Source: Squalus acanthias
Taxonomy: Eukaryota
Assembly (NCBI GenBank): GCA_030390025.1
Contig: JASTWF010000244.1
Coordinates: 124,001 to 188,000, forward strand
Direction: 5' to 3'
DNA: 64,000 nt
Below are positions 6,704 through 52,394 of the stretch, piece after piece (position 1 is the stretch's first letter; each line of letters starts with the position of its first letter). Below the pieces are notes generated by a model. That model saw only the letters and a program-made list of their open reading frames with translations. It searched no databases and was not told the DNA's origin. Position numbers and translations under genes: made by a program.

Positions 6704-6949
6704 TGTTGAGGCTGCCGCGAAACACGAATGGAGGCTGAATCCATATGTGGAAAACAAGAAGCTTTTATTCACTGCATGGCAAAACAAAATGTCTGAGACA
6801 GCTGCTCCCAGAATTCTCTGGGTAAACTCCCAGAATTCTCTGGGTAAAACCTGAGGCCCCACCCCCTTCTGCCTTAAAGGGAAGGGGCTGGAAATTTGTC
6901 CACAGACGGAAGAGTGGATTATGCCCGTTTTAGGTGGCGATCCGCCACA
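6704..6949 (-). repeat. 3' LTR of Gypsy element
   Basis: Direct repeat of 10823-11068; 3 substitutions seen; internal 22-bp tandem duplication CTCCCAGAATTCTCTGGGTAAA. Confidence 0.95.
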
Positions 6950-6969
6950 CAGCTCCCCCCAGAATCCGC

Positions 6970-9900: not shown

Positions 9901-10782
9901 CCGGGTGCCATACGTCTGGATTTCCGAGCCGTTAGCAGCAGCCGGCGCCGGTCCTCATTCGCCCTTTTGGATGTCGAGGGAGGAGGCTGGGATGATGCTG
10001 TGCTGAGCCCCAGTGTCGCACAGGAACCGCCGGCCGGTTTTGTCATCCGTGACGAACAGCAGGGAGCCCGCGTGGCCCACGGCCATCGCGGGGGCTGGAA
10101 CGGGGTCGGACTTGAAAGAGCAAGGAGGTGTGCACCGTTGTGCCCTGGCGCCGACCCGTGCGTGGTAGTAACAGTGGCCCGGGTTAGTGGGGCGTGAAGG
10201 CCCCGGGGGCCTGGTGACAGGCCCTTGTGGCCGCGGGCTGGATGGTGAGGGGTGCGCCCAGGCATTGGCTGCCAGGTCCGGAGTGACGTCGCGGCTGGAG
10301 TGAGCGGACAGCAGCTTGTCGGCCTCATCGGCCAGGGCTTCCAGGTTCGTGAGGCCGGAAGCCACGATCGCTGGGCGGATGCTGAGAGGGAGCTGGCGGA
10401 TGAATAGCGTGCGGAAGAGGGATCCGGGTGGGCTCTCATCGGTGAGGGAGAGCATGTGGGAGAGGAGGTCTGACGGTGAGGCATCACCGAGGCCTGGAAG
10501 GTCGAGGAGGTGGCAATTTCGCTGATATGCCGAGGCCGTAAATTTTTTAAGGAGCGCTGTTCTGAGATGTGCGTACTTGCCTTCCTCTGGTGGGTTCTGC
10601 AGCGTTGTCCAAACCTTGGAAACTGCGACGCTACTGAGTGATGTGACGAGATAGTCGTACTTCGTCCCATCTGTGGTGATATTTCACAGCCGGAAGCGAG
10701 ATTCAGCTTGGAGAAACCAGGCTTCGGGCTGGTTTTCCCAAAACTCCGGCAGTTTCACGGAAACTGCGTTCGTGTCCACCAT
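6970..10782 (-). CDS. Gypsy gag-pol single frame with two in-frame TGA stops (10684-10686, 9955-9957); open RT-RH-IN segment 9843-6970
   Basis: MVDTNAVSVKLPEFW...; FLCDTGA protease; RT YLDD; RNase H TDASD; integrase HVDIVGP/SDRGPQF/GLCERFH. Confidence 0.9.
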
Positions 10783-10807
10783 TGCAGTGCTCGGAATACG
10801 TTCTGAG

Positions 10808-10821
10808 CGTCGGGGTCACCA
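10808..10821 (-). promoter_or_regulatory. Primer-binding site complementary to tRNA-Trp
   Basis: - strand TGGTGACCCCGACG right after the 5' LTR. Confidence 0.85.
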
Positions 10822-10822
10822 A

Positions 10823-11068
10823 TGTTGAGGCTGCCGCGAAACACGAATGGAGGCTGAATCCATATGTGGAAAACAAGAAGCTTTTATTCACTGCATGGCA
10901 AAACAAAATGTCTGAGAAAGCTGCTCCCAGAATTCTCTGGGTAAACTCCCAGAATTCTCTGGGTAAAACCTGAAGCCCCGCCCCCTTCTGCCTTAAAGGG
11001 AAGGGGCTGGAAATTTGTCCACAGACGGAAGAGTGGATTATGCCCGTTTTAGGTGGCGATCCGCCACA
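10823..11068 (-). repeat. 5' LTR of Gypsy element
   Basis: Direct repeat of 6704-6949, followed on the - strand by the PBS. Confidence 0.95.
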
Positions 11069-11834
11069 CACGGACCTTAAATGGCTCCAAGATGGAGTCC
11101 TTGCGTCACTTCAGATCAGCCCTAACTTTCTGTGGCGGCTTTAGTTCGGATCTACTGTGCAAATACAGCAACTTCACGCCATTCAGTGCATTTCAATGGT
11201 GAGGCAAACGGCGAGATGCCCTTTTTGCGAAGCTAAAGGCAACTCAGACAGCAACTTTTGGATTTTTGAGTTTAACCACGCCTCTACCCCTCACCTGAAG
11301 TTGCTGTACAGTTTGAGCATAAATAACAGTGAGCGCCGTTAGACTCATTGTTATTTTGAGAGCAAAATCTGGGGCATAATCGACTGGTGTGTTTAATTGT
11401 TCTCGTTTGATTTAAAAATGCATAACCTGTAATTATTTGATAATTGGGAAATATTAATAATCTGAAACTAATATACAGATTTAAGTTGGTGACTAACAAT
11501 TCTACTGGGCAGTTTCAGCATTGGCAAAGGTCTGTTCGTGAAGGCCCATGACCTGGAGTGATCCGATTGGAGACAAGGGGAATAAAGAAACCAAAATAAA
11601 TTAAATGGAAATCTTGCTCTCACCCAAAAATAAAATTACCTTGGTTGTTTTTTCGATATTTTAGCAAACTGAGAAAATCCGAGTTGATCTTTTTGCAGTC
11701 TGTGAAAAATAATCCATTTGGGGTACTTTTTTGGTCTGGAAGAGCAAACAATAAAATAAAAGCCCAGAATAACAGAACAATAATACGAAAGAAAAACCTT
11801 GCATTTATAGAGTTCATTTCCTATCCTATTTAAG

Positions 11835-20597: not shown

Positions 20598-21331
20598 TTA
20601 CAATTGGTTCCACCGAGTCTGGAATGGCTCCCTCATCTTTTGCAAATGTCGTTGCATTGAAACCCATTCACTAACCTTTCAAACTGATGATAAGCAAGGA
20701 AGTGTCTAATCAAGATGTGTGATAATGGTCGAACATCAAACAGGATGAAGACATTTCTTTTTGTATTGTATGGTTTGAAATCGAACAGAATGGCAGGAAG
20801 ACAAGATTAAGATGGTACAATCAAAAGGGGAAGGGTTTGCGTCAATCTAGTATCACGGGTTTTGATCTTTTGTATTATAAAAGGGTGTGTTTAGAAACGG
20901 GTGCAACTTGCAAGGAAACTGCGGACGAATTTGATCACCCGTACAGATGGAAACATACTGCTCCACATGATCGCCGGGGTGAGTGGTGTTTGAAATTAAA
21001 GAGTTAAAGGGAACGGTGTATGTTAGTATTGTTTGGAGTTAAAAGGGGACAGTGCATTAACATTTGTATGTTATTCGTAGTACAATAAATAGTTAAAGAC
21101 ATACTGAGTCTTGACCATTTTACTCCACCCGGAAGGAGTTCAAGTCAGGATTCTGGAATTATAAGATGGGTGGTGTGGGTTCACCTACCTATAGATTAAA
21201 ATTCGATATAGGGAAAAAATGTGGTTGGTATCATTGGAGAGAGAGAGACAGATTTCACTTAGCAACAGCTGGTGTTTGCAACCAACCAGCCGTGGATATT
21301 TTCAGAATCGAATGTTTAGATTAGAAATACT

Positions 21332-21961
21332 GGGGGTGAAATTGGGTGCCTTTGCGCCGTCCGTTCCAAGGACGCTAACAGGGCACAAATGGCTTTGCGA
21401 CCGGGTGCGGCACTGATATCGACTCCCGCCATATTCGGCGGGAGCTTTGCGGCGACGCTACAACTTTGGGCACTGATCTCCTTCGCCCAGAGATTGTGAC
21501 GTCATCGCCGTGCGCATCGCCCAGTAGTGCCCCGGACTCGAAATTGACTTCCACCCCCAGCAGCAGCGCCGGTTAAAAACACCGACAGCTGCAGGAGGTG
21601 TACATCGGGCGGGCAGGCAGCCGCTTCGGGGGCGATGATTAAAGGCGCAGTCGCCGAGGTAAGTTAACAAAAAACTTACCTTGTTCCATTTTCTTCGTGG
21701 GTTCCTGCCCGCTATCGATCAGCTTGGTTGAGCTGCCTTGGTGGTCCAGGTAGGTACTTTTTATATTGCAGAGCCTGCAGCGATGGCCCTTCCCTTTAAG
21801 GGAGGGAAGGAGCCTTTGAACATTGTAGCACGGCTGAAGTCTCCGGCCCACCTGCTGCCGAGCACAAACGGCGATTTTTTCAAAAGTTTGATATTGTTAG
21901 CGCCCGGCACTAACTTTTTTAAATTAGCGCCCTAAACGGGGCGACAGTGAATTTCTCCCCC
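21332..21961. mobile_element. Harbinger-type MITE (family-A-like ends)
   Basis: TIRs GGGGGTGAAATT / AATTTCTCCCCC; flanks ACT/ATT. Confidence 0.8.
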
Positions 21962-22341
21962 ATTATGTTAGGATAAGAAAGTCTAGAGACCAGAAGGTTT
22001 ATGCTTACCACAGCAAGGTCACGATATTTTTATATGCTTTTAACGTTGACGTATGTTGAAGAAAATGCAGACTTGTGTCTCTGGACTATGCAGTAGCCAG
22101 AGACTACCATATTAGGTAATGCTTGCTCCAGTTTGATAAGAAAAAGGTGTATAAATATAAGCTTTTTCCTTTATTCAAGCAGCATGAAAGGACCTTTGCC
22201 TCGGTTCGTGTGGTCTATCTGTGACTGTACTCCGCTTGTAAATTGCTTTCTATGCTGAATTTAAAGAATAAAATGATTACAACCAAAAGACTGAACTCGT
22301 TACTAGTCAAGTGAACAACAGAACTCTGTTTTAAGTCAACA
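21962..22341 (+). repeat. 3' part (U3-R-U5) of the ERV 5' LTR; true 5' start unresolved
   Basis: TATAAA at ~22150, AATAAA at ~22267, ends in CA immediately before the PBS. Confidence 0.65.
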
Positions 22342-22342
22342 T

Positions 22343-22360
22343 TGGCGAGCCAGGCACGGT
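22343..22360 (+). promoter_or_regulatory. ERV primer-binding site, tRNA-Arg(ACG)-like
   Basis: TGGCGAGCCAG matches the complement of the tRNA-Arg(ACG) 3' end (TGGCGAGCCAGCCAGG). Confidence 0.75.
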
Positions 22361-22674
22361 CTGAACCTGCAGCTTTTTGTTCTGATAACCGGGGAGGTGT
22401 CGATACCAGACTAAAGTGAGACCTAGATCATCAAGAACTCGATCGGGACGGGCTCTGAGACAGGAGGTAGACTATTTCCACCATCGGCAACTTACGGTGA
22501 CAATTATGTTGCGGGGCACAAAATAAAAACCTATACGTATGAGTAGTAAACATTTTATGGACGTATAGCAGGTAAAAAGTTAAATAGTGTCTTAATATGA
22601 CATTGGCTGAATGACCATTGTACTAATCATATAGTCCTCAATCACTTACAGGCATCATAGAAAGGGGGAGATTG

Positions 22675-25600
22675 TTTTTTTTTTATTCGTTTATGGGATG
22701 TGGGCATCGCTGGCAAGGCCAGGATTTATTGCCCATTCCTAATTGCACTTGAGAAGGTGGTGGTGAACCGCCGTCTTCAACCGCTGCAGTCCGTGTGGTG
22801 AAGGTACTCCCACAGTGCTGTTAGGGAGGGAGTTCCAGGATTTTGACCCAGCGACGATAAAGGATCGGCGATATACTTCTAAGTCAGGATGGTGTGTGAC
22901 TTGGAGGCGAACTTGGAGGTGGTGGTGTTCCCATGCGCCTGCTGCCCTTGTCCTTCTAGGTGGAAGAGGTCGCGGGTTTGGGAGGTGCTGCCGAAGAAGC
23001 CTTGGCGAGTTGCTGCAGTACATCTTGTAGATGGTACACACCGCAGCGATGGTATGACGGTGGTGGAGGGAGTGAATGTTTAAGGTAGTGGATGGGGTGC
23101 CAATCAAGCGGGCTGCTTTGTCCTGGATGGTATCGAGCTTCTTGAGTGTTGTTGGAGCTGCACTCATCCTGGCAAGTGGAGAGTATTCCATCACACTCCT
23201 CATTGTGCCTTGTAGATGGTGGAAAGGCTTTGGGGAGTCAGGAGGTGAGACACTTGCCGCAGAATACCCAGCCTCTGACCTGCTCTTGTTGCCACAGTAT
23301 TCATGTGGCTGGTCCAGTTAAGATTCTGGTCAATGATGACCCCCAGGATGTTGATGGGGGATTCGGCAATGGTAATGCCGTTGAATGTCAAGGGGAGGTG
23401 GTTAGACTCTTGCTTGTTGGCGATAGTCATTGCCTGGCACTTCTGTGGTGTGAATGCTACCTGCCATTTATCAGACCAAGCCTGAACGTCATCCAGGTCT
23501 TGTTGCATGGACTGCTTCATTAACTGAGGAATTGTGAATGGCACTGAACACTGTGCAATCATCAGCGAACATCCCCATTTCTGACCTTATGTTGGAGGGA
23601 AGGTCATTGATGAAGCATCTGAAGATGGTTGGGCTGAGGACACTGCCCTGAGGAACTCCTGCAGTGATGTCCTGGGGCTGTGATGATTGACCTTCAACCA
23701 CCACAACCATCTTCCTTTGTGCTAGGTATGACTTCAGCCAGTGGAGTGTTTCCCCCCCGATTCCCATTGACTTCAGTTTTACTGGGGCTCCTTGATGCCA
23801 CATTCAGTCAAATGCTGCCTTGATGTCAAGAACAGTCACTCTCACCTCATCTCTGGAATTCAGCTCCTTTGTCTTTACTCCCAGTGCCATGTGCTAGCAG
23901 GAGCAGAAATAGGAGAATAGACCAGATGAATGCATGGCTGGAGAGTTGGTGTAGGAGGGAGGGATTTAATTTCCTGAGGCATTGGGACCGATTCTGGGGA
24001 AGGTGGGACCTGTACAAGCTGGACGGGTTACACCTCAGCAGAAGCGGGACCAATATCCTCGCAGGGGGGGTTGCTGGTGCTGTTGGGAAGGATTTAAACT
24101 AGTTTGTCAGGGGGCTGGGAACCTAAGTGTGAGCCCAGAACAGAGAGAAACAAAGCTGGAAGTGCAAGTTGGAAAAGTAGTCAGCAAAACTAGTAGGGAG
24201 CAGAAACAAAGGCCAACAGTAAAGAGGGTCAAAGTGCAGAAGAATATTAAACAGGCAAAGTTGAAGGCACTTTATCTAAATGCATGTAGCATTCGCAACA
24301 TGGTGGATGAACTAATGGCACTAATAGAAGTAAATGGGTATGATGTAATTGCCATTACAGAGACATGGTTGCAGGGTAACCAAAGCTGGGAACTGAATGT
24401 TCCAGGGTACTCAACATTTAGGAAGGACAGACAAAAAGGAAAAGGAGGTGGCATAGTGCTGTTAATAAGGGATGAGATTGGTACGGGAGCGATAAAAGAT
24501 CTTGGCTTGGCAGATCGTGATGTAGAACTGGAATCAGTTTGGGTGGAGCTAAGAAACAGCAAAGGGCGGAAAACATTGGTGGGAGTTATGTATAGGCCAC
24601 CAAACAGTAGTAGTAATGTAGGGCACAGTATCGATCAAGAGATTAGAAGTGCATGTAACAAGGGCAATACGGTAAGCATGGGGGACTTTCATCTACATAT
24701 TGACTGGGCAAATCAAATTACCACTAATGGTGTGGAGGACGAATTCTTGGAATGCATGCGAGATGGTTTCCTGGATCAGTATGTGGAGGAACCAACCAGG
24801 GAACAGGCTATTCTGGATTTGGTACTGTGTAATCAGAAAGGGCTAATCAATAATCTTGTGGTAAAGGGGCCTTTAGGAACAAGGGACCATAATATGATTG
24901 AATTTTATATTAAGTTTGAGAGTGATGTAGTCCAATTTGAAACTAAGGTCTTCAATCTAAACAGAGGAAACTACAAGGGTATGAGGGACAAGTTGGCCAT
25001 GGTAGATTGGGAGACTACACTAAAAGGTATGAAGGTGGACATACAATGGCTAACATTCAAGGAAATAATGCATAATTTGCAACAAACCTATATTCCTCTA
25101 GGGCATAAAAACCCAAAAGGAAAAGTGATCCAACCATGGCTAACAAAAGAAATTAAAGCTAGTATTATGTCAAAGGAGGAAGTTTATAAAGTTGCCAGAA
25201 AAAGCGGTCAGCCTGAGGATTGGAATCTTTTTAGAAATCAGCAAAGGGGGACCAAAAATTGATAAAGAAAGGGAAAATGGAATATAAGCACAAACTAGCG
25301 AAAAATATAAAAACGGATTGTAAAAGCTTCTATAGGTATGTGAAAAGGAAAAGACTGGCGAAGGTAAATGTAGGTCCTTTACTGTCAGAGACGGGAGAAT
25401 TTATAATGGGGAATGAGGAAATGGCTAAGAAATTAAATAAATACTTTGTTTCTGTCTTCACGGAGGAAGACACAAAAAAACTCCCAGAAATATGAGAAAA
25501 CCAAGGGTGTGGCGAGAATGAGGAACTTAAAGAAATTATTATTAGTAAAAAAACAGTACCAGCAAAATTAATGGGACTAAAAGTCGATAAATCTCAAGGA

Positions 25601-28600
25601 CCGGATGACCTACATCCTAGGGTTTTGAAAGAGGTGGCCATTGGGTTAGTGGACGCATTGGTCGTCATCTTCCAAAATTCTATAGATTCTGGAACGGTTC
25701 CTGCTGATTGGAGGATAGCAAATCTAACCCCGCTATTTAACAAAGGAGGGAGGGAGAAAACGAGGAACTACAGCCCTGTTAGCCTCACATCAGTAGTTGG
25801 GAAAATGCTGGAATCTATTATAAAGGATGCAATAACTGCGCACTTAGAAACTAATGGTAAGATTGGGCAGAGTCGACATGGATTTATGAAAGGGAAGTCC
25901 TGTTTGACAAACCTATTGGAGCTCTTTGAAATGTAACTAGTGGAGTAGACAAAGGGGACGATGTGGTGTATTTGGATTTTCAGAAGGTCTTCAATAAGGT
26001 CCCACACAAGAGGTTGGTGAACAAAATTAGGGCACATGGAATTGGGGGTAATATACTAGCATGGATTGAGAATTGGTTAACAGACAGAAAACAAAGAATA
26101 GGGAAAAACAGGTCTTTTTCAGTCTGGCAGGCTGTGACCAGTGGGGTACTGCAAGGATCAGTGCTTGGGCCCCAGCTATTCACAATCTATATCAATGATT
26201 TGGATGAGGGGACTAAATGTAACATTTCCAAATTTGCTGATGACACAAAGCTAGGTGGCAGTGTCAGTTGCGAAGAGGATGTGAAGAGGCTTCAAGGGGA
26301 TCTTGACAGGCTCAGTGAGTGGGCAAGAACATGGCAGATGGATTATAATCTGGATAAATGTGAAGTTATTCACTTTGGTAGAAAAAACAGAAAGGCAGAG
26401 TATTTCCTAAATGGTGAAAGATTGGGGAATGCAGATGCTCAAAGGGACCTGGGTGTCCTTGTGCATGAGCCACTGAAAGTGAATGTGCAGGTGCAGCAAG
26501 CCAATAGGAAGGCAAATGGTATGCTGGCCTTCATTACAAGAGGATTTGAGTATAGGAGTAAAGAAGTCTTACTCCAATTATATAGGGCCTTGGTGAGACC
26601 ACACCTGGAGTACTGTGTACAATTTTGGTCTCCTTACCTAAGGAAGGATATACTTGCCATAGAGGGAGTGCAACGAAGGTTCACAAGATTGATTCCTGGG
26701 ATGGCGGGACTGTCGTATGAGAAGAGATTGAGTAAACTAGGCCTGTATTCTCTTGAATTCAGAAGAATGAGAGAGGATCTCATTGAAGCATACAAAATTA
26801 TTACAGGGCTTGATAGGGTGGATGCTGGGAGAGCATTTCCCTTGGCTAGGGAGTCTAGAACCAGGGGCCACATCCTCAGGATAAAGGGTAAGCCATTCAG
26901 GACTGAGATGAGAAGAAATTTCTTTACACGGAGGGTGGTGAAACTTTGGAATTTTCCAACCAGACAGCTGCGGAGGCTCAGTCATTGGGTATATTCGAAA
27001 CAGAAGTCGATAAATTTCTGACGAGTAAGGGCACCAAGGGATATGGCGATAAGGCCGATGAATGGAGTTGAGGCAGAAGATCAGTCATGATCTCGTTGAA
27101 TTGCAGAGCAGGCTCGAAGGGTGAATGGCCTACTCCTACTCCTGCTTCTTATGTTCTTATGTCCATGTTTGGATCAAGGTTGTAATAAGGCCGGGAGCCG
27201 AGTGGTCTTGGCGGAACCCAAACTGGGCATCAATGAGCAGGTTATTGATGAGTAAGTGCCGCTTGATAGCACTGTCGATGACACCTTCCATCACTTTGCT
27301 GATGATTGAGAGTAGACTGATGGGGTGGTAATTGGCCGGGTTGGATTTGTCCTGCTTTTTGTGGACAGGACATACCTGGGCAGTTTTCCACATTGTCGGA
27401 TAGATGCCAGTGTTGTAGCTGTACTGGAACAGCTTGGCTAGAGGCGCGGCTAGTTCTGGAGTACAAGTCTTCAGCACGATAGCCGGGATGTTATCGGGGC
27501 CCATAGACTTTGGTGTATCCAGTGTGCTCAGCCGTTCCTTGATATCACGTGGAGTGAATCGAATTGACTGAAGACTGACTTCTGTGGAGTAGGCCGATAT
27601 GAATCATCCACTCGGCACTTCTGGCTGAAGATGGTTGCAAATGCTTCAGCCTTGTCTTTTGCACTCACATGCTGGGCTCCACCATCATGGAGCCTCCTCC
27701 TCCTGTTAGTTGTTTAATGGTCCACCACCATTCACGACTGGATGTGGCAGGACTGCAGAGCTTTGATCTGATCCATTGATTGTGGGATCGCTTAGCCCTG
27801 TCTATTGCATGCTGCTTCCACTTTTTAGCATGCATGTAGTCCTGTGTTGCAGTTTCCCCAGGTTGGCATTTTTAGGTATGCCTGGTGCTGCTCCTGACAT
27901 GTTCTTCTACACTCCTTATTGAACCAGGGTCCCCTGGCTTGATGGAAATGGTAAAGTGAGGAATATGCCATGCCATGAGGTTACAGATTGTGGAGGAATA
28001 CAATTCTGCCGCTGCTGATGGCTCACAGCGCCTCATGGATGCCCAGTTTTGAGCTGCTAGATCTGTTCTGAATCTATCCCATTTAGCACGGTGGTAGTGC
28101 CACACAACACAATGGAGGGTGTCTTCAGTGTGAAGACGGGACTTCATCTCCACAATGACTGTGTGGTGGTCAGTGCAACCAATACTGTCAGGGACAGATG
28201 CATCTGCGACAGGTAGATTGGTGAGGATAAGGTCAAGTAGGTTTTTCTCTCGTGTTGGCACTCTCACCACTTGTTGCAGGCCCAGACTGGCAGCTATGTC
28301 CTTCAGGACTCGACCAGCTCAGTCAGTAGTGGTGCTACCGAGCCACTCTTGGTGATGTACATTGAAATGCCCCACCCAGAGTACAGTCTGTGCCCTTGCT
28401 ACTCTCAGTGCTTCTTCGAAGTGGTGTTCAACATATGGAGGAGTACTGATTTATCAGCTGAGGGAGGGCGGTAAGTGGCAATTAGCAGGAGGTTTCCTTG
28501 CCCATGCTGGGGTCCAGAGTCAATGTTGAGGACACCCAGGGCCACTCCTTCCTGACTGTATACCACTGTGCCACGACCCCTGGTGGGTCAGGACATACCC

Positions 28601-29151
28601 AGGGATGGTGATGGAGAAGTTTGGGAGATTGGCTGAAAGGTATGATTCTGTGAGTATGACTATGTCAGGCTATTGCTTGACTAGTTTGTGGGGCAGCTCG
28701 CCCAATTTTGGCACAAGTTCTCAGATGTTGGTGAGGAGGACTTTGCAGGGTCGACTGGGCAAGGTGTGCCGTTGCTGTGTCTCCATAGTCGGTGCCGAGT
28801 GGTTTCATTCTTATTATGTTTCGTAGCGGTTAGATACAACTGAGTGACTTGCTAGGCCATTTAAGAGTCAACCGCATTGCTGTGGGTCTGAAGTCATATG
28901 TAGGCCAGACCAGGTAAGGACAACCGATTTCCTTTGCTAAAGGATATCAGTGAACCAGATGGGTTTTTAACGACAATCCAATAGTTTCATGGTTAACATT
29001 ATTGATACTAACTTTTTATTCCAGATTTATTTAATTAACTGAATTTAAATTCCCCAGCTGCCGTGGTGGGATTTGAACTTACGTCTCTGGATCATTAGTT
29101 CAGGCTTCTCGATTACTAGCCCAGTGACATTATCACTATGCTACCATTTCC
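22675..29151 (-). mobile_element. Near full-length non-LTR retrotransposon (CR1/L2 group, distinct from CR1) with a tRNA-like 5' head, inserted in the ERV leader
   Basis: EN (PTREKNLLDLILTN, TDHHTV) and RT ([21 protein letters not shown]); poly(A) end at ~22675; GGAGATTG on both flanks (22667-22674, 29160-29167). Confidence 0.85.
23874..27160 (+). mobile_element. CR1 LINE (ORF1 SGNH-esterase tail plus frameshifted ORF2) nested in the preceding LINE
   Basis: DGLHL ORF1 motif; YLNACSI/ITETWL/GDFH EN; KFADDTK RT; (TTCTTATG)n tail; host LINE resumes at GTCCATG 27161. Confidence 0.95.
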
Positions 29152-29241
29152 ATAAGTGAGGAGATTGGAGACTGATCACCTCCAATAGAGGTCGAGTCCA
29201 AGAAGGAGAGGGCCGAATGGAAAACAGCTGTAACAATAAAA

Positions 29242-30950
29242 ATGGATAGCGATGATAAAGGAATATTATTGAGCAGAGCATAGGCAGAAAATTATGTCCA
29301 AAAGCGCACTACGGAAGGACCTTTTGAGGAGGGTGACACTAATGACCCTTATGGGGGACTTTTCAATGAAGTGTGAGAATCGAATATAAATTTAAAAAAT
29401 AACAAAGCAAGAAAGGCCAATTGCATAATGGCAATGGTGCAAATAATAACTAGTTTGAATGAGAAATTCACTAAACACTCAGGCTGTACAGGCAGAAGTA
29501 GAGAGATTGAAAAATGAATTGGGTGCTGCACATGCAGAATGGAGATTAGCCGCCAACCAACAGTTGGAGATGCAACAATTACGCATCCAGCTGCAGCATT
29601 CTTCAGAAACAATAGCTGAGATACAGGGAAAACGGAAGGATACCAAAATAGCTTATTGAGAACGATGGAACTTTTCGTAAGAAAACAACGATAGAGAGGT
29701 GGTAAGGCAATGGAGAGAGGAGAGACGGGGAAGAGCAGAGGACAAGAAAAAGATTAAAGAATTCAAAGTTAGAGTGGCAGCCTTGTTTGTTGGCACTTAT
29801 GAGGAGGAATCCAGTCCTCCCAACAGCGCCCCCACAGTTCAGAAGACCACTGAAGGTGGAGGTTTCTGAGGCCGAGCAGGGAGGAAGTGATACTTCTACT
29901 ATCAATAGTAATGCAGGGGGTGTCGCGGATTATACCCGGTCTAAAACAGGTGGTAGTACGGGGAGTACACAGCTCTGTTAAAATGGCCCCGTTAGTGAAC
30001 AAACACCTGCGCACAAAAGGGGAGACAGATATGCGAACAGGTCAAACAGTATATGAATACGAAAATAACGTAAGTCAGGATCTGACTCTTTTAGAATCAT
30101 GCCACCTCAGTGACCAATTGCCCAAATATGAGGGAATAGGAGACCCAACTCGGTTATTAAATAAAGTACGATTGCTCCAGCGGGTGTACGCCTTGACAGA
30201 CAAGGATGCTTGTGGACTGCTGCAGGCTGTCTTGCCTCCAGGCGTGACATTGCTTGATGAGTTTGAACTGGGGAAGAGGGCCAATTCTCAGACCATGAAG
30301 AGCGTAAGACCATAGTGTGTGAAGCGGTGGGATATAGTGGCGGATATGGGAAAGATTATGGACCATAATCCCAGGGATGAGCACCCAATCCAGTATTTGA
30401 GGGACTTTGTGGAAGTGTATAATCAGAACTGTGGACCCCGTGGTGCTCGAGTAGAATTGTCCGAGGATGATCCCACTTTTTGGAGTTTAGTGATGAATAA
30501 ATACAAGACCCGAGTAAGTCCTGCTTGTGAGCATATACTTCATCAATACGCCATGAACTGAGGGCGATGAAACCACGAGAAGGGATAGGGAGGGATATTC
30601 AGACACCCCTTCAAGCCTGGCATAAATCCCGACTCGAGCATAAAACTCTGACAATCCCAAAAACTGAAAAAGCAGCGACAGTTGTGACTAATGAAGGGGC
30701 AAAAGGAGGGAAGCCTTGCTTTAACTGTGGGAGACAGGGACACTTTGCCAAGGAGTGTCGTACACAAAACATCGGTGGTAACCGTGGCAAGTCAGGACAC
30801 ACTAAAGGACAGCGTTGGTCTAAGGGAGGAGGAGCCCACGGGCAGGGACCCTAACAGAGAGGAGGACAGAGTCTCAGTTTAACCGCTTCCAGATGAACAG
30901 AATGTGTATGTAGAAGTAGTTTGAGCCTTACTGAAATTGTGGGAGAGAAA
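29242..30950 (+). pseudogene. ERV gag (degenerate) with N-terminal coiled coil and CCHC zinc knuckle
   Basis: AEVERLKNELGAAHAEWRLAANQQLEMQQLRIQL; CFNCGRQGHFAKEC at 30717-30758; many stops. Confidence 0.8.
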
Positions 30951-30999
30951 GAATCAGGGCAAGTCCACGAACCCAAATCCTTTTAAAAAGGATGAACAG

Positions 31000-33900
31000 G
31001 GGCAGGCCTCAGTAGCTGCTGTGAGTCAGCTTCGATATGATGTCGAGGGCAGACCTTTGTCTCAGTCTTGGTAAGAGGCCGCCGAGACAATTTTCTAGTG
31101 GACATGGGGGCGTCCTGTTCCATCACTCACCATGAAGATTTCCCCTCCAGCGGGCATTGCCTGCAGTTATTGGGAGCAGGAGGAGGAGGCATCTCGGCAG
31201 AGATGACCCTTCCCCTTCAATTACAAATTGGCAGTATTAAGTTTGAATTATCATTGTGTATGGCCTCCACACATGAAGGGTCAATTTTAGGGTCAGGCGG
31301 GATCGCTAAAGGGAAATTGATTATTGATGTTACAAACCATATGATTTGACAGGGACCCGATCCACCCCATGACATGCATTTGCCAACCGTAGTACATGAT
31401 GTACACTCAGTGTATACAGTAAAAGGGATAAGGGTTTATGATGTTCCCCATCTATTACAAACGTTCGATCAGTGTTTGGCTCACATAATTTGGAAACATC
31501 AGAAGGTATGGGCACAGCATGAACATGATTGTGGGAGGGTGATAAATATGGTGGTAGCCGTAGACGGTGAGATCCTTCACCCCAGAAGCAGTATCCGTAT
31601 CCAGAAGATGCGGAACAGGCAACTGGGGACGTCATACAGTCCCTTTTAGGCCAGGGGATACTACGGGAATGTGTCTCCGGAACAATGCACCCGTATGATC
31701 TGTAACGAAGTCTGATGGCTCGTGGAGAACGACTATCGATTACTGTCAGCTAAATGCCGCCCTGTTAGCCAGTCACCCTGATGTGATGTCCAAGTTACGG
31801 GGCACTGCCACCATCTATTCAACCTTGGACATTTCAAATGGATTCTGGAGCATTCCAGTGCATCCAGACAGTCAGTAGAAATTTGCATTTACCTTCAGGG
31901 GACAACAACACACTTGGGTAGGGTTACCCCAGGGATTCCACAAATCGCCTACTTTGTTTCACCAGTGTATGGCAGATGTATTACATTCATGTTCACGACC
32001 TGACGATGTGATTCAGTATGTTGATGATTTATTGTTGCAGTCAGAGCCAATGGGGAAGCATTACTTCCTCTTGGAGGAAGTCTTGAGCCTCTTAGAAGAG
32101 GTTGGATTTAAAATTAATCTGAAAAAAGCTGCACTTGCGCAGAAAACTAACTTTTTTGGGTGTTAAAATTGAACAGGGAGGAAAAACCCCCAGATCCAGC
32201 CACGATATGACTGGTAGCGGAACTACCAAGACCACACACGTTTACAGCTTTGCGGTCGTTCCTGGGTTTTGTGGAATTTTGTAGGGAGTTTATTGAAGGT
32301 TTCAGTGAGATGGCAGCCGCATTGTATCGCCATCTACAGGGCAACCCCGGTAAAGAATTGGGACTGGGAATCACATCAGGCATTCAAAAATCTTAAAAAG
32401 GCACGCAAACAAGCTCCAGCCTTGCGGAGTCCAGATCCCTCTCAGCCCTTCATTATGGAAGTTGCAGTTTCAGAGCAATGTATACCTGCCGTGGTAATGC
32501 AAGAGGTGCACGGAAGGTGCATCCCAGTAGGATATTTCTCACGTACACTCACCCCTGTAGAGAGATCGTACGACGAATGTACTAAGCAGATTCTGGGGGT
32601 CCACTGGTTAGTCAAGCACACGGAATGTTTGGTGTGATTTAATCAGTTCATCTTTCACACCCCTCATACCCCAGTGGTGTTATTAGTGAAGGGCCAGGTG
32701 AAAGGTGTGTCCCCAGCGCAGTGGGGAAGATGGATCTTGGATTTGAGCAGTGAAGATATTACGGTCCGACACTTCCACACCTACCAATTGGCTCAAATGT
32801 TGCAATATGAGGGAACACCCTGTGCCTGTAAAGTGGAAGAGGTCGTATCTAGTGGACCTATTAAAACCATACCACTGGTGGGCTCCGCTAGTGTTTACGT
32901 GGATGGTTCCAGGTTTTATGAACAGGGACAATACCATACAGGCGCTGCATGCTGGATTCCACAGGACTCTCATTAAATGTCCGCCCCAGCACTCTGCCCA
33001 AAAGGCCAAAGTTATTGCTGTAGTTACAGCTCTCCAGACAATTATGGGGAAGGTCACTAAATGCTCTTGATAGTTCATTTGTGTGCCATTCCCACACAGA
33101 CTATTTGCCAATTTGGCAAAAATGTGGCTTCTGCACTGCAGAAGGGCAACCACTCGCCCATCATTCGGAACTCCAAATGATTTGGGATAGCGCCGGTGAG
33201 CGACATGGGCAAACTGCCATTTATAAAGTGAAAGCCCATCAGTGGGAGGGAATTAGCCAAGAAGGTGACCATAATAATGTGGCTGATCAATTGGCCAGAG
33301 AAACAGCTATAAAAGAGATTCCATGGAAACCACCTACCTCACAACCACTGGCATCAGTGCGACAGACTCCGGTCATACCTGATTTGAAAAGCTGTCAGGA
33401 TACTGACCCCGATGTGGTCATGGCTAAAGAGGCTATACGCAATGGGAAGGATCTTCCTCTGCCCTTCGCACTCAGTAAGAACTCGCTTGTCCTACATGAA
33501 GAGGTTTTGTACCATGAGGATGGCCCCAAATTGACATGGGTCACCCCTCTCTGTCTTAGAAAAGAGTTGATTCTGTATATGCATCAAATGCCTCTGTTTC
33601 TCGGCTTATGGATATGTTACACAGTTGTTACTGGTGGCCAATGATGCGCCAGGATGTTCAACATCACCGAGATTTGTGTCTCATTTGTGCCCAAATGAAT
33701 CCGGCCCCAACTAAAGAAAAGGTCCCGATGGGTACCTCTCACCCGAATAATGATCCATGGGAAACATTGCAGATTGACTCTACAGGCCCATTACCCACAG
33801 CAAAAGGAGGGTATTGGTTTATCTTAGTGGTTATACATATGTTTACCCGGTGGATCGAAGCCTTTCCAGCCCGTAAAAATGATGCAGTTACCACGGGAGC

Positions 33901-34560
33901 AAATTTTTACCAGATGGGGTTTTCCAAAAAGGATAGAAAGTGATAATGGATCACATTTTATGGCAGAAGTGATGCAACATCTGTGCCGCCTCATCGGTGT
34001 GGAGCAATATTTCCACATCCCCTACCACCCACAGTCTATGGGATGGTGGAACGCTTGGATCGCACTCTGAAAGCAGGGCTGAAAAAAGCTGTCATGCAGG
34101 GAAGTGATGATCTGGTTAAGACCAGTACTGATTGGGTTCTGGCTTTGCCTGGTATTCTGATGGCCACACCAGTGAGCTCTACCGGCTGATTTGAGCTGAT
34201 GACAGGCCGACAGATGCAAATTGCACATCCAAGTGAGGTTCCACTCCCCATTGCTACTCGCCAGATCCATAACCAGTTCCTCCAGAACCTCCAACAATCT
34301 TTACAGTCCACTCTGCTCCATGTAGTGGAGAAGATGGGTGCTACCCATTTTAACACCACCTGGGACGACCACCCCACCTATTGCATTAACTACTTGATTG
34401 CGAGCAAGTCATGCTTAAAACTTTTTTAAAAAGGGGGGCCTGGGAGACTAATTGGGAAGGTCTGTATGAAATCATGGACAAATTGGGAGAAACAAACCTT
34501 AAATTGGCCATCCAGAAACGAGATCAGTGTAAACTGTACAAGAAAAGGAGGTCAGATAAC
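31000..34560 (+). pseudogene. ERV pro-pol (degenerate): protease, RT, tether, RNase H, integrase
   Basis: FLVDMGAS; LPQGF, YVDD (32017-32028); tether PDPSQPFIMEV; RNase H VYVDGS/SAQ/KVKAH/NNVADQLA; IN LQIDSTGPLP/ESDNGSHF/GMVER. Confidence 0.88.
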
Positions 34561-34608
34561 TAGATGGAGAATAAATGCTGCATTTGATTTTATTTTAACT
34601 GGAACAGG

Positions 34609-35230
34609 ATGTGGAGAGTCATTGTACTACTGCTGACCTCTACCAGTGTGAAACAACAGCTGGAAAGAAGATGGAACTGTGTAACAAGCCCGGTTGGCCC
34701 GAACGGATCCAGTGATGAACGCACCTGGAGGGTGCAAATACCAGCAGGGGATGGGTTACAAATACGATGTGATTGTATGGGAAATAATACTTTCAGTGTA
34801 ACTAAGATCACTTTTAACTGGATCAAAATTCAAGGACCTATCAGCAGCAAAATTGGGGACTTGGGGATCCTGTATAAAGGAGCCTTAATAATTAATGCTA
34901 ATTAAAGTGAGTTGAAACAAAAATTGAACTGGCCGAGAATTTGGAAGCATAGCTTTCTCAAAGATGCGATAGGAGTGGGATGCTCCGTGAAGGACAGTAC
35001 TAGCCGTTTAACTGCAGTATCTGGAAACTTTGTTTATATTAATGCAACAGATGTTGAGGAAAAGCTTGAGCATGTGTTCAACTCAAGCCTACAAGATTAT
35101 ACCTGCCCACCTCAGTGACCAAACCCAAATAGAAACGGACTTGAAGTAATCAAATCCGGGACTGTACGATGTAATGTTGCCCGTTTTGAGATTGTACCAA
35201 TGTTATTGAATATGAAATTGGACATATCCA
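34609..35230 (+). pseudogene. Putative ERV env N-terminus (two in-frame stops), truncated
   Basis: Signal-peptide-like MWRVIVLLLTSTS just after integrase; N-glycosylation sequons (NGS, NNT, NAT, NSS); one frame across stops at 34903 and 35116. Confidence 0.6.
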
Positions 35231-35258
35231 AAAAGCTTTTCATTGTAATTATACAGAT

Positions 35259-37250
35259 ATGGACAGGGTGAAAGAACGAGCTCAGCGCTTCAGCGAGCGG
35301 GCCTTGGAGGCTCTGGTTGGCGCGGTGGAGCGCAGAAGATCTATACTCTTCCCTGAGAGTGGCAGGAGGCCTTTGTCGCATGACCACAGAAGATTGTGGA
35401 GGGAGGTGGCTCAGCACGTCTCCTCCAGGAGCATGGCGCCCAGGACCCATACTCAATGTCGCAAAAAGTTCAACGACCTCACTCGGGTCATCAGGGTGAG
35501 TGGCTTTTTTTCAATACCTCTCCATCCCTCTATTTCAACCTCACTCTATTGCCAGTGGGTCTTAAAACCCCAATGCCCAACACTCATGGCCCTCTCATGA
35601 AATGCACATTCCACACCTTGCATACAGTAAGAGCTATTCAATTATGGGAGGCACATCAGGCAAGACCATGGCTGTATATTTACTCAGACCCCGTCCTTTT
35701 TCTTGCAGGCCAAGCTATTTCATAATAGCAGACAGCAGCAACGGACGGGTGGAAGGCGGCCTCAGCTGCAACCCCTCAACGATCTTGAGGCGCGCACCCA
35801 CAGGATTGTGTCAAGCCAGGTGATTGGTCCCATTGCCCCTGGAGAGGCCAACTCCGTTCGGGACAGCAATGGTAAGGCCTCTCCTCTCTCATTCCACTTG
35901 TCCCTCACAACACCAGCCTTTGACACTTTCAATCCAACTTACTAAATCGCTGCAACAACAGAAAACGCTGGAAAAACTCAGCAGGTCAGACAACATCTGT
36001 GAAGAGAGAAACAGAGTTAATGTTTCAGGTCGAAGACCTTTCGTCAGACCTGAGAAAAAAGCAGGAAATGAAACAGATAAAAAAGCAGGTGGGAGGCTTG
36101 GGGGAGGAATAAAAGAACAAAAGGGGTGGTCTATGATAAGTAGAGACATTAAGAGATGCTCAAGGCAAGACGAGATGGTAATAGGACAGGTTAAGAAACA
36201 AAAGATGGCTCAGAAGTGTGAAGTGTGAAATGCTGACAGAATGAAAGACAGCTGCCGTGGGGGGAGAGAGAGAAAAAAAAAGGGAAAAGGCACAAACAAC
36301 TTACTAAATCGCTGCACTCCTTCCTCCCTTACTGCCTCCCTGTGCTCACACTAAAGCCACTCTTGTACCTCCCTGCCTTCAGGTGGTAATTCACCAGCTG
36401 AGGAGATGGGCCCTGAAGCTGCCAGTGGGAGCGAAGCGAGGAGGAAGAGGAAGCCGGAGCATCAGTGCTACCCTCTCCTGAGGAAGCCCATGCCCACACT
36501 GGGACCACGTCTTCCCTGGAGGGGAGCAGGGGGGAAGGGTCTGATGAGGGTGAAGCTCCGGGACCCAGCGGGCTGCAGTAACGCAATGTGGCTAGGCAAG
36601 CTCGGGGGCCTTCTCCCCGGAGGGAGAGTAGGACAGCGAGTCCTGCTGCACTAGACGCAGAGGAGGAGTGGCTCATCGCTGAAATGAACACCCAGGCGGT
36701 GGACATGCACACTCAGCTCATGGGTGCAGTGGGAAGGGTCCCCAATTGCATTGATGCACTGGCAAGGAGTGTGGAGCATGATGCTGTAGCACAGGCGGAT
36801 GGCACGCTAATGCTTAGTGCTGCAATTCGGTCACTGGCTGCCGTGATCCAATCTCAGACTGGTCTCATGCAGACTCAGATTGAGGCCACGCAAGCACTGA
36901 CTGCTGCCATTGTCGCTGGTTCGGACACATTTCCCCAGGAATCTCACCGCGCCGCAGCAGGCCAGCAATCTCTGCTCCAGCAGATTGCTCCGGATGCTGA
37001 GGTGTTGCCCCGTGGGTGTGCCAGTGTGTCGGTCGAGCAGGGAGTTGCTGTCTTCTCTCAAGATAACAGCATTCCTGCTGCCACCGCTGTCACTTCCCCA
37101 TTGCACTTGCCACCGCCTGTAGCCCAGACTGCTGCCGCCCATGCAGAGTAGGTGCAGTCTGCAGCCGGGCCCTCCAGGCACCGAGCTGGTCGAGGCCGTC
37201 CTTCAAGTGCGTCTGTAGTCTCAGGTTCTGACAATCAGCAGCCTTCCACC
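35259..37250 (+). CDS. Harbinger Myb/SANT DNA-binding protein (exons 35259-35495, 35709-35871, 36383-~37250; stops in exon 3)
   Basis: RAQRFSERALEALV...LWREVA...QCRKKFNDL; GT-AG junctions; KLFHNSRQQQRTGG. Confidence 0.8.
35955..36296 (-). mobile_element. Penelope-derived short insert with intact hammerhead core (36022-36047)
   Basis: 20-bp TSD CAACTTACTAAATCGCTGCA (35935-35954, 36297-36316); - strand CTGACGA-AAGGTC-TTC-GACCT-GAAAC. Confidence 0.85.
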
Positions 37251-37284
37251 ATTCATGTTGTTCTCCATACCAGAAGCCATTTCC

Positions 37285-38457
37285 TCAGTGGGGGCCTAGA
37301 AGCGGCTTGTTATCAGCCGTTGCAGTTTCAACATTGTGGGCCTCCCTCCCGCCTTGGTGCTGCTGCTGATCATCCTCCTCCTCTTCCTGCTCCTCTTCCT
37401 CCTCCTCCTCCTCCGGTGGTGCTCCAAGACCTGGTGGCATTGGATGGGTCCTGAGGATTGCCAGGTTATGAAGCATGCAGCACACAACTATGAAGAGGGA
37501 GACTCGCTCAGGCAAGTACTGCAGGGCTCCTCCTGAGTGGTCCAGACAGCAGAACCGTTGCTTGAGCACGCCGATCGTCTGCTCAACAATGTTCCTGGTG
37601 GCGAGATGGCTCTCATTGTACCGCAGCTCAGCAGGGGTGTTGGGGTTACGGAGCGGTGTCATCAGCCAGGTGCACAGTGGATAACCCTTGTCCCCGAGGA
37701 CCCAACCACTTGGCTGATGCGGAGCCTGAAAAAGTTCTAGCACAGCAGTCTGGTGCAGGATGAAAGCATCGTGGCTGCTGCCAGGATAGCAGGCATTGAC
37801 AGCGAGTATCAGCTGTCTGTGGTCACAGACCAACTGGACGTTTAAGGAGCGGAACCCCTTGCGGTTTCGGAAAACCTCGGCATTCTCATGCGGTGCCCGC
37901 AATGCCGCATGCGTGCATTCAATGGCGCCCTGCACCATGGGGAAGCCCGCTATCCTCGCAAAGCCCAATGCGCGTTCATGCTGTTTGGCCCGGGTCATCG
38001 GGAAAGAGATGTACTGGCGTCTCCTTTTATAGAGGGCATTTGTGATCTGACGTATACAGCAATGGACCGCGAACTGGGAGAAATTGGTGATGTCCCCAGT
38101 AGCTGCTTGAAAGGAGCCGGTGGCATAAAAGTTCAGAGCCACTGTGACCTTCACTGCCACTGACAGAGACGTCCTGGTCCTCAGTAGAGGCTGCAGATCT
38201 GGCTGCAGCAGGTGGCAGAGCTCAGTGACTACCTCCTTGCTGAAGCGCAGCCTGCGCAAACACTGCTCCTCAGACAAATTAATGTCGGAGAATTGTTCCT
38301 GGAATACCCTGGGAGGATAAGGTCTCCTGTGCAGAGGCCTGTTGGCCCTCCTCCGTCTGGCCATGATTGCCACTCTCTCTCTGCGTCTCTGTTGCCTCCG
38401 ATTTTGCAGGCACAGGTTGACGCCACGAATCAGTGCAGCCCCCAAGTCTCTTGGCAA
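37285..38457 (-). CDS. Harbinger DDE transposase (HARBI1-like), 390 aa
   Basis: [58 protein letters not shown]. Confidence 0.92.
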   Translation of the reverse strand: MPRDLGAALIRGVNLCLQNRRQQRRRERVAIMARRRRANRPLHRRPYPPRVFQEQFSDINLSEEQCLRRLRFSKEVVTELCHLLQPDLQPLLRTRTSLSVAVKVTVALNFYATGSFQAATGDITNFSQFAVHCCIRQITNALYKRRRQYISFPMTRAKQHERALGFARIAGFPMVQGAIECTHAALRAPHENAEVFRNRKGFRSLNVQLVCDHRQLILAVNACYPGSSHDAFILHQTAVLELFQAPHQPSGWVLGDKGYPLCTWLMTPLRNPNTPAELRYNESHLATRNIVEQTIGVLKQRFCCLDHSGGALQYLPERVSLFIVVCCMLHNLAILRTHPMPPGLGAPPEEEEEEEEQEEEEDDQQQHQGGREAHNVETATADNKPLLGPH

Positions 38458-39579
38458 TCGAAGTAATGAAGGTCAAATCCAAAAGTACCTGCAAAGTGAT
38501 GCTCAGTAGCCAAAACTACTTCACACAGTGTTGACTCTATGCAGAAGTCTCTCTACCTCTCTCTCAGAATCTCTCTCTCTGTCAGAATGAGTGGTGCAAA
38601 AATGTCTACCACAGAAAAAGCCAGGAAGAGGCCGCCTTTAAATAGTGCCCCCCCAAGCCCCTCACCGACTGGGAAACGTTCCAATCTCCCTGTCGTTGCT
38701 TGCGCCAGGCAGAAAGGAGGGGGGCGCCACTCAATATCCGGTCCGGGGCGCCACCAGGGCGTTGCACGCTCGACTGACGTCACGATCTGTGGGCGCAGGA
38801 GATCGGGGCGCTAAACTTTTGCGCCGCCGCAAAACTCGCCAATTTTGTGAGCGGCGCAAACATCACCGCGCCCGGGCACTAGTTGATTTGCGCCCCATTG
38901 GCGCCCTTTGGGGCACTAACGGGAGGCGCAAGCCAACCAAATTTTTCCCCCATTGGATTTAACAGCATAAATGCTGTCAGTTGGCTCTGACGGCAGGCTC
39001 CTGGAATCTAAATTAAAAGACCAATATAAAAGTGGCTTTTGTCTTCTGCTCACATTCTCTGTCATATGATGCCTGTATTGCTCTGACATTTTTGATTTGT
39101 TTTTGTATCATTCTATAATTCTCTCCTCTTCTCCATATCTTTCTTTTGTATGTCTTTAGGCATGAGGGAATAATGTGGGTTTGCAGTATGGACTCTGGGA
39201 GGACTTTTGGGGATGGGTTAGATTTGAAAGCACGGAAAGAGAGGGCTGAGCTGTAAGGCCTGGGATCAATGGGGGTTGGGGCAAGGATGCTATTGCCTGA
39301 GATCACTCTGGGGAGGGGATACACTCTAGGAGGAGTCAGATGTTTAGAGATTTTTGACTACAGACCGTACTATCTCACAGTTCTTGTTCATGGAAGGGGT
39401 TGGACCACTGAGGTTGTGCTGGATAGGGAGAAGTGGCACAAGTAAGTAGTTGGGCGTGGTAGTATACAGGGTAGATTTCACTGGATTGGTGTGTGGGAGC
39501 ACAGAGAGAAACAGTAAGTACTGAGGGGGTGAGATGGGGGGCTGGAAGCAATACAGGATACGTGCCTGGGCTTCAAGTA

Positions 39580-42500
39580 CCTGGGAACTCGGCCAGGTCG
39601 CTGCAGACATTTGTAGCTTGCTGGAACAAGACCTGTTGCCCAGAGGTCCTGGTGGCCACTCCATACCAGTGGCTGTCAAAGTCCCCACCGCCCTCAACTT
39701 CTTCACCTCAGGCTCCTTCCAGGGATCTGCAGCAGACATTTGTGGGATTTCGCAGTCGGCCACCCCAGGTGACCGATGCCATGTTTCACAAGTCAGCCAA
39801 TTATGTCAACTTTGCCACTGATGAGGCCAGTTTTACTGAGCAGGCGCTCGACTTTGCAGCTCTAGCTGACTTCCCACAGGTGCAGGGCATCATCAACTGC
39901 GCACATGTGGCCATGAAGGCACCCCATCATCACCCAAGAGTGTTTGTGAACCGCAAGGGCTTCCACTCCCTCAATGTGCAGCTCATCTGTAACCATAAAA
40001 AGATCATCATTCATGTGTGCACCAGATTCCCTGACAGCTGTCATGATTCTTTTGTGCTGCGCCAATCCACCCTCCCTGAGCTCATTGCACCTCCAAACAG
40101 ACTTACCAGACTTAGGCTGCTTGGAGACAAGGGCTATCCACTGAAGACGTGGCTCATGACACCCTTGAGGACGCCAAGTACTGAGGCCGAGGAGCGATAT
40201 ATGAGAGCCACATGTCCACCAGATGTGTCATAGAGCAAGCAATAGACATGCTGAAGATGTGCTTCAGATGCCTTGACAGATCTGGAGTAGCCCTTCAGTA
40301 CGCACCAGAATCATCGTAGTTCGCTGTGCGCTACACAACATACTGCAGCAGCGAGGATTGGAGCTGCAGGAAGAGCAAGGTGCAGAGTGCACAACCTCTT
40401 CAGAGGAGGAGGAGGTGGAGCAGGTGGAAGACGGGGAGGAGGAACCTGAGGTGGAGATGGCACCGACAGTGGCGCACATTGCTGCCTGGGAGGCCTGGGA
40501 TGGCCTCATAATGGCCCAATTTACTTAACTTGCTCCAATGCAGCCACATGGCTGCCACATGCTGTACTAAGTCCCCCACCCCCCCAACAATACCATAAAG
40601 CATCCCTACAATGACCAAGCCATTCCTCTCACCCAAACCCCCAGTGCTCGAGGTTAAGTAATGTCTCAGCATTCACTCCAAGTGACAAAGCCACTTCCAA
40701 GGTAGCAGGCAAAAATGGACAAGACTGGAAAGTGGTGCAAAGAAATACATTTATCTGTGTCATCAAAAGAACTGAAACTTAACACTCATGTGCATAACCT
40801 TGTGCATCTACTTTTGTGTCTTTTTTCTTTTCCGAGTGCTTCTACGAGGTGCAGCCCCTATGGCTTCAGCAGAGGTAGAGGCAGGCTGCTCACTTCTCTG
40901 CTGCGACTTGTCAGACACTTTTGGCGGACGTCTTCTGGGTTTTGGAGTTTGTGATGGCCCCGCCAAAGTCTGTTCCCCCTGCGACTGTGCAGGGGCAGAC
41001 TCGGCCATCGCGATCCGAGGAAGCATGTGGGGCTCTGACTGAGGGGGAGGCAATGGGGAAGAAGTGGGAGCGCTTTGAGAAGAGCCCCCACGTCCATGTC
41101 CCCTCTCACCATCATCCCTCTCATGGGCCACACGCATTTCCCTGCTAGCAAGGAGCTGGAGAGCACCTTGCTGCACAGCAGTGGGGCGATGAATGCCCAG
41201 GTCTACATTTATATCCCTCCTAGAGATGAAGTCTATGAGCATCTGCTATCTTTGTCCACAGCTAGCATGTGCTCATGTGACTGCCGCATTTGCTGCTCCA
41301 TGCAGGTGGCCATCCTTTCCATGGAACAGCACATCATCGTCATCGCCTGTGAGATGGTGGTGCTCATGTTGGAGATGGACTCCTCCATTCTCTGCACATT
41401 TGCAGATATCGCGGCTCCAGAAGATGCCAGAGCCTCATGCAATTCTTGCTGCCCCTCCAAGATCAGCCTCTTTCTCGATGGCCCCAGAGGCTCAGCGTCT
41501 GCATGCAGCTCAGCAGAGCTTGGAGGGTCCTGCACCCTCCGCGAGGAGTCTCCACTGCTGTCCCTGTCAACACCATCTGCTCTTCCTCACTTGCGAAGTG
41601 AGAGACACCAGGTGACAACAGTACTCTATGGGGCACAGGACCCACCGAGGTGTTTGTATCTGCACTGTGCTTGGGTCTGCTGACAGTGCACCCTCAGAGG
41701 CTGGAGCTTCCTCTGAGGAGTCGTCTTCCTCCTCTGGCTCGACATTGTGGGGGGGGGGGGCTGAGAGGAGGCGGGGGTCACTTGATGGGCCTGTGGGAGA
41801 GTAAAGAGATGAATTAGAAGTGTTATAATAAGAATGGGTAACGTTACCATTATGCACAGGATGACATTTCACTGGCTGCTGACATCATTCACCATATGAG
41901 CGACTGCTGTATGCCATGTGGCTGTATGAGATGTAATTCTGTCACCAGGTTGCTGGGATGATCCCCTCTCTCCGTCTTCCACTGCCAGCAACTCTGCAAC
42001 TCCTGATAGCTCCAGGTCCCCCTCCTCTGCTGGCATCAGTTGGGTGAATACAGGAGGGCCACCTCCGGTTCTCTGCCTTTCCCCTGTGTTCTGGACTCTT
42101 TTCTCCTGCAAGGAGGGAAAGAAGAGAACTTTGAGTGAGAGTAATGGAATGAGTGTTACGAATGGATGGGTTACATCTGTAGAGGGTGACTAGGAGGGAG
42201 TGGGATGACAATGCCAAATGGCCTCCTTTTGTGGTGTTACTTGCTATGATTGCATTAGGATGAGGGTTAGTTTCAGGGGTGGTTAGTCAGATGGGGATGT
42301 GAGTATGTACATAGAGAGAGAGGGATGGGTGGACGTGCAAGGTATGTTGGTGTGAGGAATGATATGCAGGAGTAGGCTTGGGAAGGCAGAGTGATGGGGA
42401 TGTGGTGACAGGCACATCAGGATGAAGGTGAGTGTGGCATTGCACTCACCTTTCCTGATCTCATGAGATCATTGAATCATTTCCTGCACTGGATCCACGT

Positions 42501-52000: not shown

Positions 52001-52107
52001 TGACATATCAAGAAAGATTGGGTCAACTGAACTTGTATCCTCTTGAATGGCAGAGCAGGCTCGAGGGACCAAGTGGCCTATTCCTGCTCCTATTTCTTAT
52101 GTTCTTA
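49065..52107 (+). mobile_element. CR1 LINE with ORF1 esterase tail and long open ORF2 (49426-52134, 902 aa); internal deletion near 3' end
   Basis: VISGLLP...DGLHL; EN CLNARSI/ITETWL/GDFN/SDH; RT YLDFQKAFD/GVPQG/KFADD. Confidence 0.95.
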
Positions 52108-52394
52108 AACATTGATTATCCACGGGCGATTTGACTGGTGGATTATGTGCAGAAGTAGGAACTGTATCTTTTTTTTTTCTCCCATCCCTGGGTGGAGAGG
52201 AGAGATTCAAAGATAATTGTGGTGCCCAAGTGGTTGTCCCAAGTGACATCAGCTAACTCAGCACAGACTGCTTTAACATAGGGCTGTAAAGATGGAAGGC
52301 AACCAAGATAATTAATTATCTGAATATCTTACCTCCATTGCCTTTTTTCTCCTTTTAATTTTCTCATTCTTCATTTTTCTCCTCCACGCTACAA

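Follow-up and report, generated by a model that had tools for sequence, protein, structure and literature searches.

A degraded endogenous retrovirus of Squalus acanthias, probably related to snakehead retrovirus and placed outside the lokiretroviruses

The window analyzed here, a 64,000-nucleotide stretch of Squalus acanthias DNA (contig JASTWF010000244.1, positions 124,001 to 188,000), contains a degraded endogenous retrovirus (ERV) on the + strand at 21966-35257. The element is real and non-coding: no protein can be made from this copy. Translation in all three frames together with a Pfam scan recovers the order LTR, primer-binding site (PBS), gag, protease, reverse transcriptase (RT), tether, RNase H, integrase and an open reading frame (ORF) in the env position. 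An earlier note had described a provirus of this kind and proposed that it may belong to the lokiretroviruses. The first part of that description stands, namely a degraded ERV with a tether, a second RNase H and an env-position ORF, whereas membership of the lokiretroviruses does not.

The 5′ LTR (21966-22341, + strand) is 376 bp long, runs from TG to CA, and carries a TATA motif at 22150 and AATAAA at 22267. The PBS (22343-22360, + strand) starts one base past the LTR end and, as labeled in the earlier note, is presumably of the tRNA-Arg type. It matches the PBS of snakehead retrovirus (SnRV) at 14 of 18 bases, the first 11 being identical. Because seven other 18-mers within the 64-kb window score at least 13 matches to the SnRV PBS, one of them 15, the identification depends on the place of the site directly after the LTR's CA. 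The LTR end and PBS reported previously are thus both present. No second LTR copy was found within the window, and Rfam gave no match in the window at the gathering score.

The broken gag gene (29400-30854, + strand) comprises a charged helical N-terminal part, a capsid-like middle and one CCHC knuckle at ~30715-30760 (zf-CCHC, E = 1.4e-6). Matches of the middle part to Gag_p24/p30 are leads, at 0.87 or less. The N-terminal part is 40% E/K/R/Q and gives weak coiled-coil Pfam matches (E = 0.04), but its heptad score was equaled by 88 of 300 shuffles, as against 8 of 300 for SnRV Gag. Of the long N-terminal coiled coil described earlier, the charged helical character is therefore retained, while the coiled coil itself, which did not beat shuffles, is a plausible prediction. 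For the SMC-like region upstream of Gag that occurs in some lokiretroviruses only, the window sequence gave weak generic coiled-coil matches and that same heptad score. By eye, a short motif at ~30960-30985, past the CCHC knuckle and in another frame, resembles the last residues of SnRV Gag.

The pol region, likewise on the + strand, begins with a protease (31041-31346; RVP, E = 3e-5) and an RT (31571-32357; RVT_1, E = 2.6e-16) that is distributed over several frames and contains LPQGF and YVDD motifs. It is followed by the tether (32368-32860), a degenerate Gypsy-type RNase H (RT_RNaseH_2, E = 1.8e-21) that also matches the RTs of MLV and Ty3, by the second RNase H (32878-33317; RNase_H, E = 6e-6) and by a broken integrase (33560-34557; Integrase_H2C2, E = 5.7e-8; rve, E = 6e-7). 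The YVDD RT, the integrase, the single gag knuckle and the degenerate tether preceding a second RNase H were all correctly recognized from the sequence and lie in the right order. The second RNase H had been called complete; it is full length but not intact, being split among three frames and having lost the acidic residue at one catalytic position. The top PDB matches are to foamy virus proteins, both for the RT (E = 3.5e-29, versus 8e-17 for Ty3 and 2e-15 for MLV) and for the second RNase H (E = 8.5e-4).

Only the 5′ part of the env-position ORF is present (34609-35257, + strand), recognized by its position and composition. It consists of 216 N-terminal codons with a hydrophobic start, four intact N-glycosylation sequons, six cysteines and two stops. 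The ORF reported earlier is thus there, while its signal peptide is a candidate only, consisting of one N-terminal hydrophobic stretch. A search of 1033 candidate proteins of 406-2000 residues detected no homolog with an E-value of 1 or below, which is weak evidence, and similarity to SnRV Env was undetectable (E = 0.48). The 216 codons left for comparison with paramyxovirus/pneumovirus F (PF00523) gave no Pfam match. They also lack a CXXC motif such as marks the SU of gamma-type Env, and the TM region is absent from the window. By eye, the N terminus looks Ig-like. Single-sequence structure models were unusable for both the window env (pLDDT 32) and the SnRV TM (pLDDT 38). A language model scored the SnRV Env TM (L001, 7820-9100) at 0.92-0.93 to the Baculo_F and Fusion_gly clusters, a weak hint given that its recognition value of 1462 falls below the 2300 mark. 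Foamy virus Env is F-like by cryo-EM, as described in PMC11468914.

The provirus is heavily decayed and interrupted. Matches to pol pass through about ten frame changes, and the pieces read contain six in-frame stops in pol and three in gag besides the two in env. A 6.5-kb block of LINEs (22675-29149), identified by Pfam and by matches to other LINE copies, is nested in the leader. It comprises an endonuclease- and RT-encoding LINE on the + strand (~23875-27160) within minus-strand LINE remnants. A short duplicated word flanks the block on both sides, a likeness equaled by 72 of 20,000 random pairs. From the order of the parts and this duplication, we infer that the LTR belongs with gag across the LINEs. 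The span of 21962-35230 given in the earlier note includes both these LINEs and an env truncated by a Harbinger element, neither of which was mentioned there.

Harbinger-type elements flank the provirus on both sides. On the 5′ side lies a Harbinger-related non-autonomous element (21331-21961) that has inverted-repeat-like ends and resembles the Harbinger end at 38720-38952 (68% match). On the 3′ side a Harbinger/PIF transposon (35258-38952; Myb_DNA-bind_5 and DDE_Tnp_4) occupies the expected place of the remaining env and the 3′ LTR, and env is cut off where it begins (~35258), a junction seen in the sequence and at loose contig ends. The transposon opens at its Myb ORF, and its left end was not seen there. 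Most of env was likely lost by deletion, along with the 3′ LTR and the neighboring Harbinger's left end.

Of the 114 matches of the adjacent Harbinger transposase, 111 come from elasmobranchs, the top 78 among them, which agrees indirectly, by way of a neighboring transposon, with a shark or ray host. Its DDE ORF (37285-38472, minus strand) is an unbroken frame of 394 residues, and a second Harbinger DDE ORF lies on the opposite strand at 39475-40233 (+). Further Harbinger ends are found near 1080-1594 and 4653-5158. Elsewhere in the window, an unbroken 926-residue LINE ORF (49354-52134, +) encodes an endonuclease and an RT, and this LINE family occurs at least five times. A young Gypsy-type LTR element (6704-11070, −) has 248-bp direct repeats that are 99% identical and an unbroken 993-residue pol ORF with RT, one RNase H and integrase.

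Contigs related to the provirus cover all 30 bins of 29150-35500, the env fragment included, in 4/4 runs from four organisms; coverage depth here is not copy number. Their likeness to the window ranges from <90% to >99%, and up to 19 contigs share differences at one site. The shared differences and full coverage together indicate a multi-copy family. Three listed contigs of one other organism (B) are 96-98% alike to the window over 278-500 bases, which suggests that the insertion predates the split from that organism. Just upstream of env, at ~34520, length differences set several of the related contigs, in three runs, apart from the window. A metagenome scan returned two distant loci (31-34% identity), which did not enter the comparisons.

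For phylogenetic placement, the comparison set was drawn from an RT search and held the best 150 of 21,678 matches. The trees of 57 and 52 rows are hand-picked subsets. An RT+tether tree was also built with six foamy, three gamma and two delta rows added that were labeled by motif and genome length; the fish foamy-like rows are represented by one, P0149. Rows were dropped from the quick tree (3/153), the integrase tree (11/46) and the RNase H tree (18/44, including 5 of 7 lokiretrovirus rows). P0020 stands for SnRV: it contains the RT string given for that virus in Dataset S3 of PMC7947760 and matched a 10,688-base genome at 99%. P0097, P0093, P0099 and P0072 correspond exactly or almost exactly to published lokiretrovirus rows, with fitting host names in three. 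The trees were built without published clade Huo rows (Xu 2018, Hayward 2015) and CmiERV sequences.

In the 57-row RT+tether tree, the window falls inside the canonical retroviruses, which are supported at 96/94 apart from one foamy-like row and at 99/94 when the foamy, gamma and delta rows are added. Within this set, derived from the best 150 matches, it groups with the coelacanth sequence P0006 and with P0007 (100/99), and the next to join are P0158 and P0031, from clusters that include Rana and Xenopus sequences (100/98 and 100/99). Coelacanth is again sister to the window in the integrase tree (99/98), and the RNase H tree, despite its dropped rows, places the window with SnRV and frog ERVs (88/90). 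RT+tether identity to the window is 58% for P0006 and 36% for SnRV. The position of SnRV itself shifts between trees: it is an open fork in both RT+tether trees, and in the quick tree it groups with the window at an SH-aLRT of 87. A clade of the window, 13 near rows and SnRV was not rejected (p = 0.24). From these sequence comparisons, the element is probably a canonical class III ERV related to SnRV (clade Huo), a reading to which we give a probability of roughly 0.8.

The earlier note had suggested a chondrichthyan lokiretrovirus instead. Like the lokiretroviruses of PMC7947760, the element has a tether and a second RNase H, a YVDD-type RT, a charged helical Gag N terminus and an env-position ORF. 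These features do not discriminate, however, because a tether with RNase H, a coiled-coil Gag and an F-like Env occur elsewhere; a tether plus second RNase H is described as general to retroviruses in PMC7947760. In favor of the lokiretrovirus reading, the second RNase H has its top PDB match in foamy viruses, that study reports lokiretrovirus and foamy RNase H as one group, and grouping the window RNase H with lokiretroviruses was not rejected (p = 0.149), with two of their rows remaining. The other domains argue against it. The window has LPQGF where all 24 published lokiretrovirus rows shown have PFG[YL] and all 15 canonical rows shown have LPQG. Lokiretroviruses form a separate clade in the 57-row tree (100/100) and in that with foamy rows (100/99), all six of their rows compared are 30-33% identical to the window in RT+tether, and they are separate in the integrase tree as well. 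AU tests reject a lokiretrovirus grouping for the window RT+tether (p = 4.2e-6), the window integrase (p = 0.00024) and the five-row clade in RT+tether (p = 0.00155), the last being a group named after the tree was seen. The first nine PBS bases had no match in the searched part of the lokiretrovirus supplement of PMC7947760, where three copies have another PBS. In the published lokiretrovirus screen, 0/6 chondrichthyan genomes were positive, and the literature searched, which covers few subscription papers, contained no report of a chondrichthyan lokiretrovirus. The zebrafish lokiretrovirus Bik-1 has been described as having a glycine-rich patch at the C terminus of its Gag. The RT and integrase phylogeny that the note had named as a check nests the RT among canonical retroviruses, taken here as the kind of outcome that it gave as refuting. 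With the window placed as it is in the RT+tether and integrase trees, the lokiretrovirus reading is refuted, and we leave it next to no probability.

Two other readings concern the position within or near the canonical retroviruses. The element could belong to a separate deep canonical lineage common to elasmobranchs, coelacanth and frogs, for which SnRV would be no nearer a relative than ERV-L/S or gamma/epsilon; the five-row clade is itself well supported but branches from an open fork together with SnRV, ERV-L-like rows and gamma/epsilon, and the env fragment is without any match. Against this stand the SnRV-like PBS and Gag, the RNase H grouping with SnRV, the failure to reject a clade with SnRV and the description of the main coelacanth ERV class as SnRV-like elements, which together make it improbable. 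A foamy, epsilon/gamma or Gypsy element is a far slimmer prospect. The foamy PDB matches of the RT and the scoring of the tether as a Gypsy-type RNase H would fit it, but in the enlarged RT+tether tree, which includes P0149, the window lies outside the foamy clade (100/99), the Gypsy clade (100/100) and the clade that contains gamma/epsilon (98/96). In addition, spumaviruses are described as lacking a CCHC box, and the window gag has one.

The SnRV-related reading agrees with what is known of the nearest relatives. The coelacanth proteins P0005/P0006 (UniRef, Latimeria chalumnae) are sister to the window in both the RT+tether and integrase trees, and the frog proteins P0158 and P0031, whose clusters include Rana temporaria and Xenopus tropicalis, are sister rows in RT+tether, at 47% and 44% identity. 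These ERV proteins differ in host class and were compared from Pol alone. SnRV (L001; P0020) shares with the window a Gag with one CCHC and a coiled coil, predicted in the window, the LPQGF and QYVDD motifs and a tether plus RNase H, besides the PBS; it differs in its low RT+tether identity and in the lack of detectable env similarity. In the elephant shark, Han 2015 (PMC4422223) described an SnRV-clustering ERV lineage, CmiERV lineage I, which by eye resembles the window in its layout, repeat-rich charged Gag, one CCHC and RT motifs, and differs in its PBS, longer LTR and complete gamma-type TM with ISD and CX6CC. Clade Huo is reported to have infected all major vertebrate lineages and to take in class III ERVs. 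In a neighboring clade, the P0012 cluster of bullfrog and leopard frog holds many full-length 1218-residue Pol proteins with a NYNRIN-like annotation, which may represent an SnRV-type ERV family that was active recently.

When active, the virus would have been transcribed from its LTR and primed by a tRNA at the PBS, with Gag assembling the particle and its CCHC knuckle packaging the RNA. The RT with tether and second RNase H would have copied the genome, the integrase inserted it and Env mediated entry. Decay followed, with LINEs entering the leader and pol acquiring its frame changes and stops, and the proposed deletion would have removed the 3′ part together with the Harbinger left end.

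A shark lokiretrovirus would have filled a gap in the host range of that group; the present element is not one. As a probable class III/SnRV-type ERV, it adds one family to a group that is already reported as the most frequent among the ERVs of cartilaginous fish, where clade III RT loci are reported to number 2843 in six chondrichthyan genomes and to be the majority class. Its remaining value lies in its closeness to coelacanth ERVs and in its env, the type of which matters for the question of whether retroviruses had an F-like envelope ancestrally. We consider it rather unlikely, though worth stating, that the provirus represents an elasmobranch family of a deep canonical lineage shared with coelacanth and frogs and bearing a non-gamma, F-like Env. 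If true, this would mean, together with the weak hint from the SnRV TM, that F-type envelopes persist among canonical retroviruses other than foamy viruses and may represent the ancestral state of the family.
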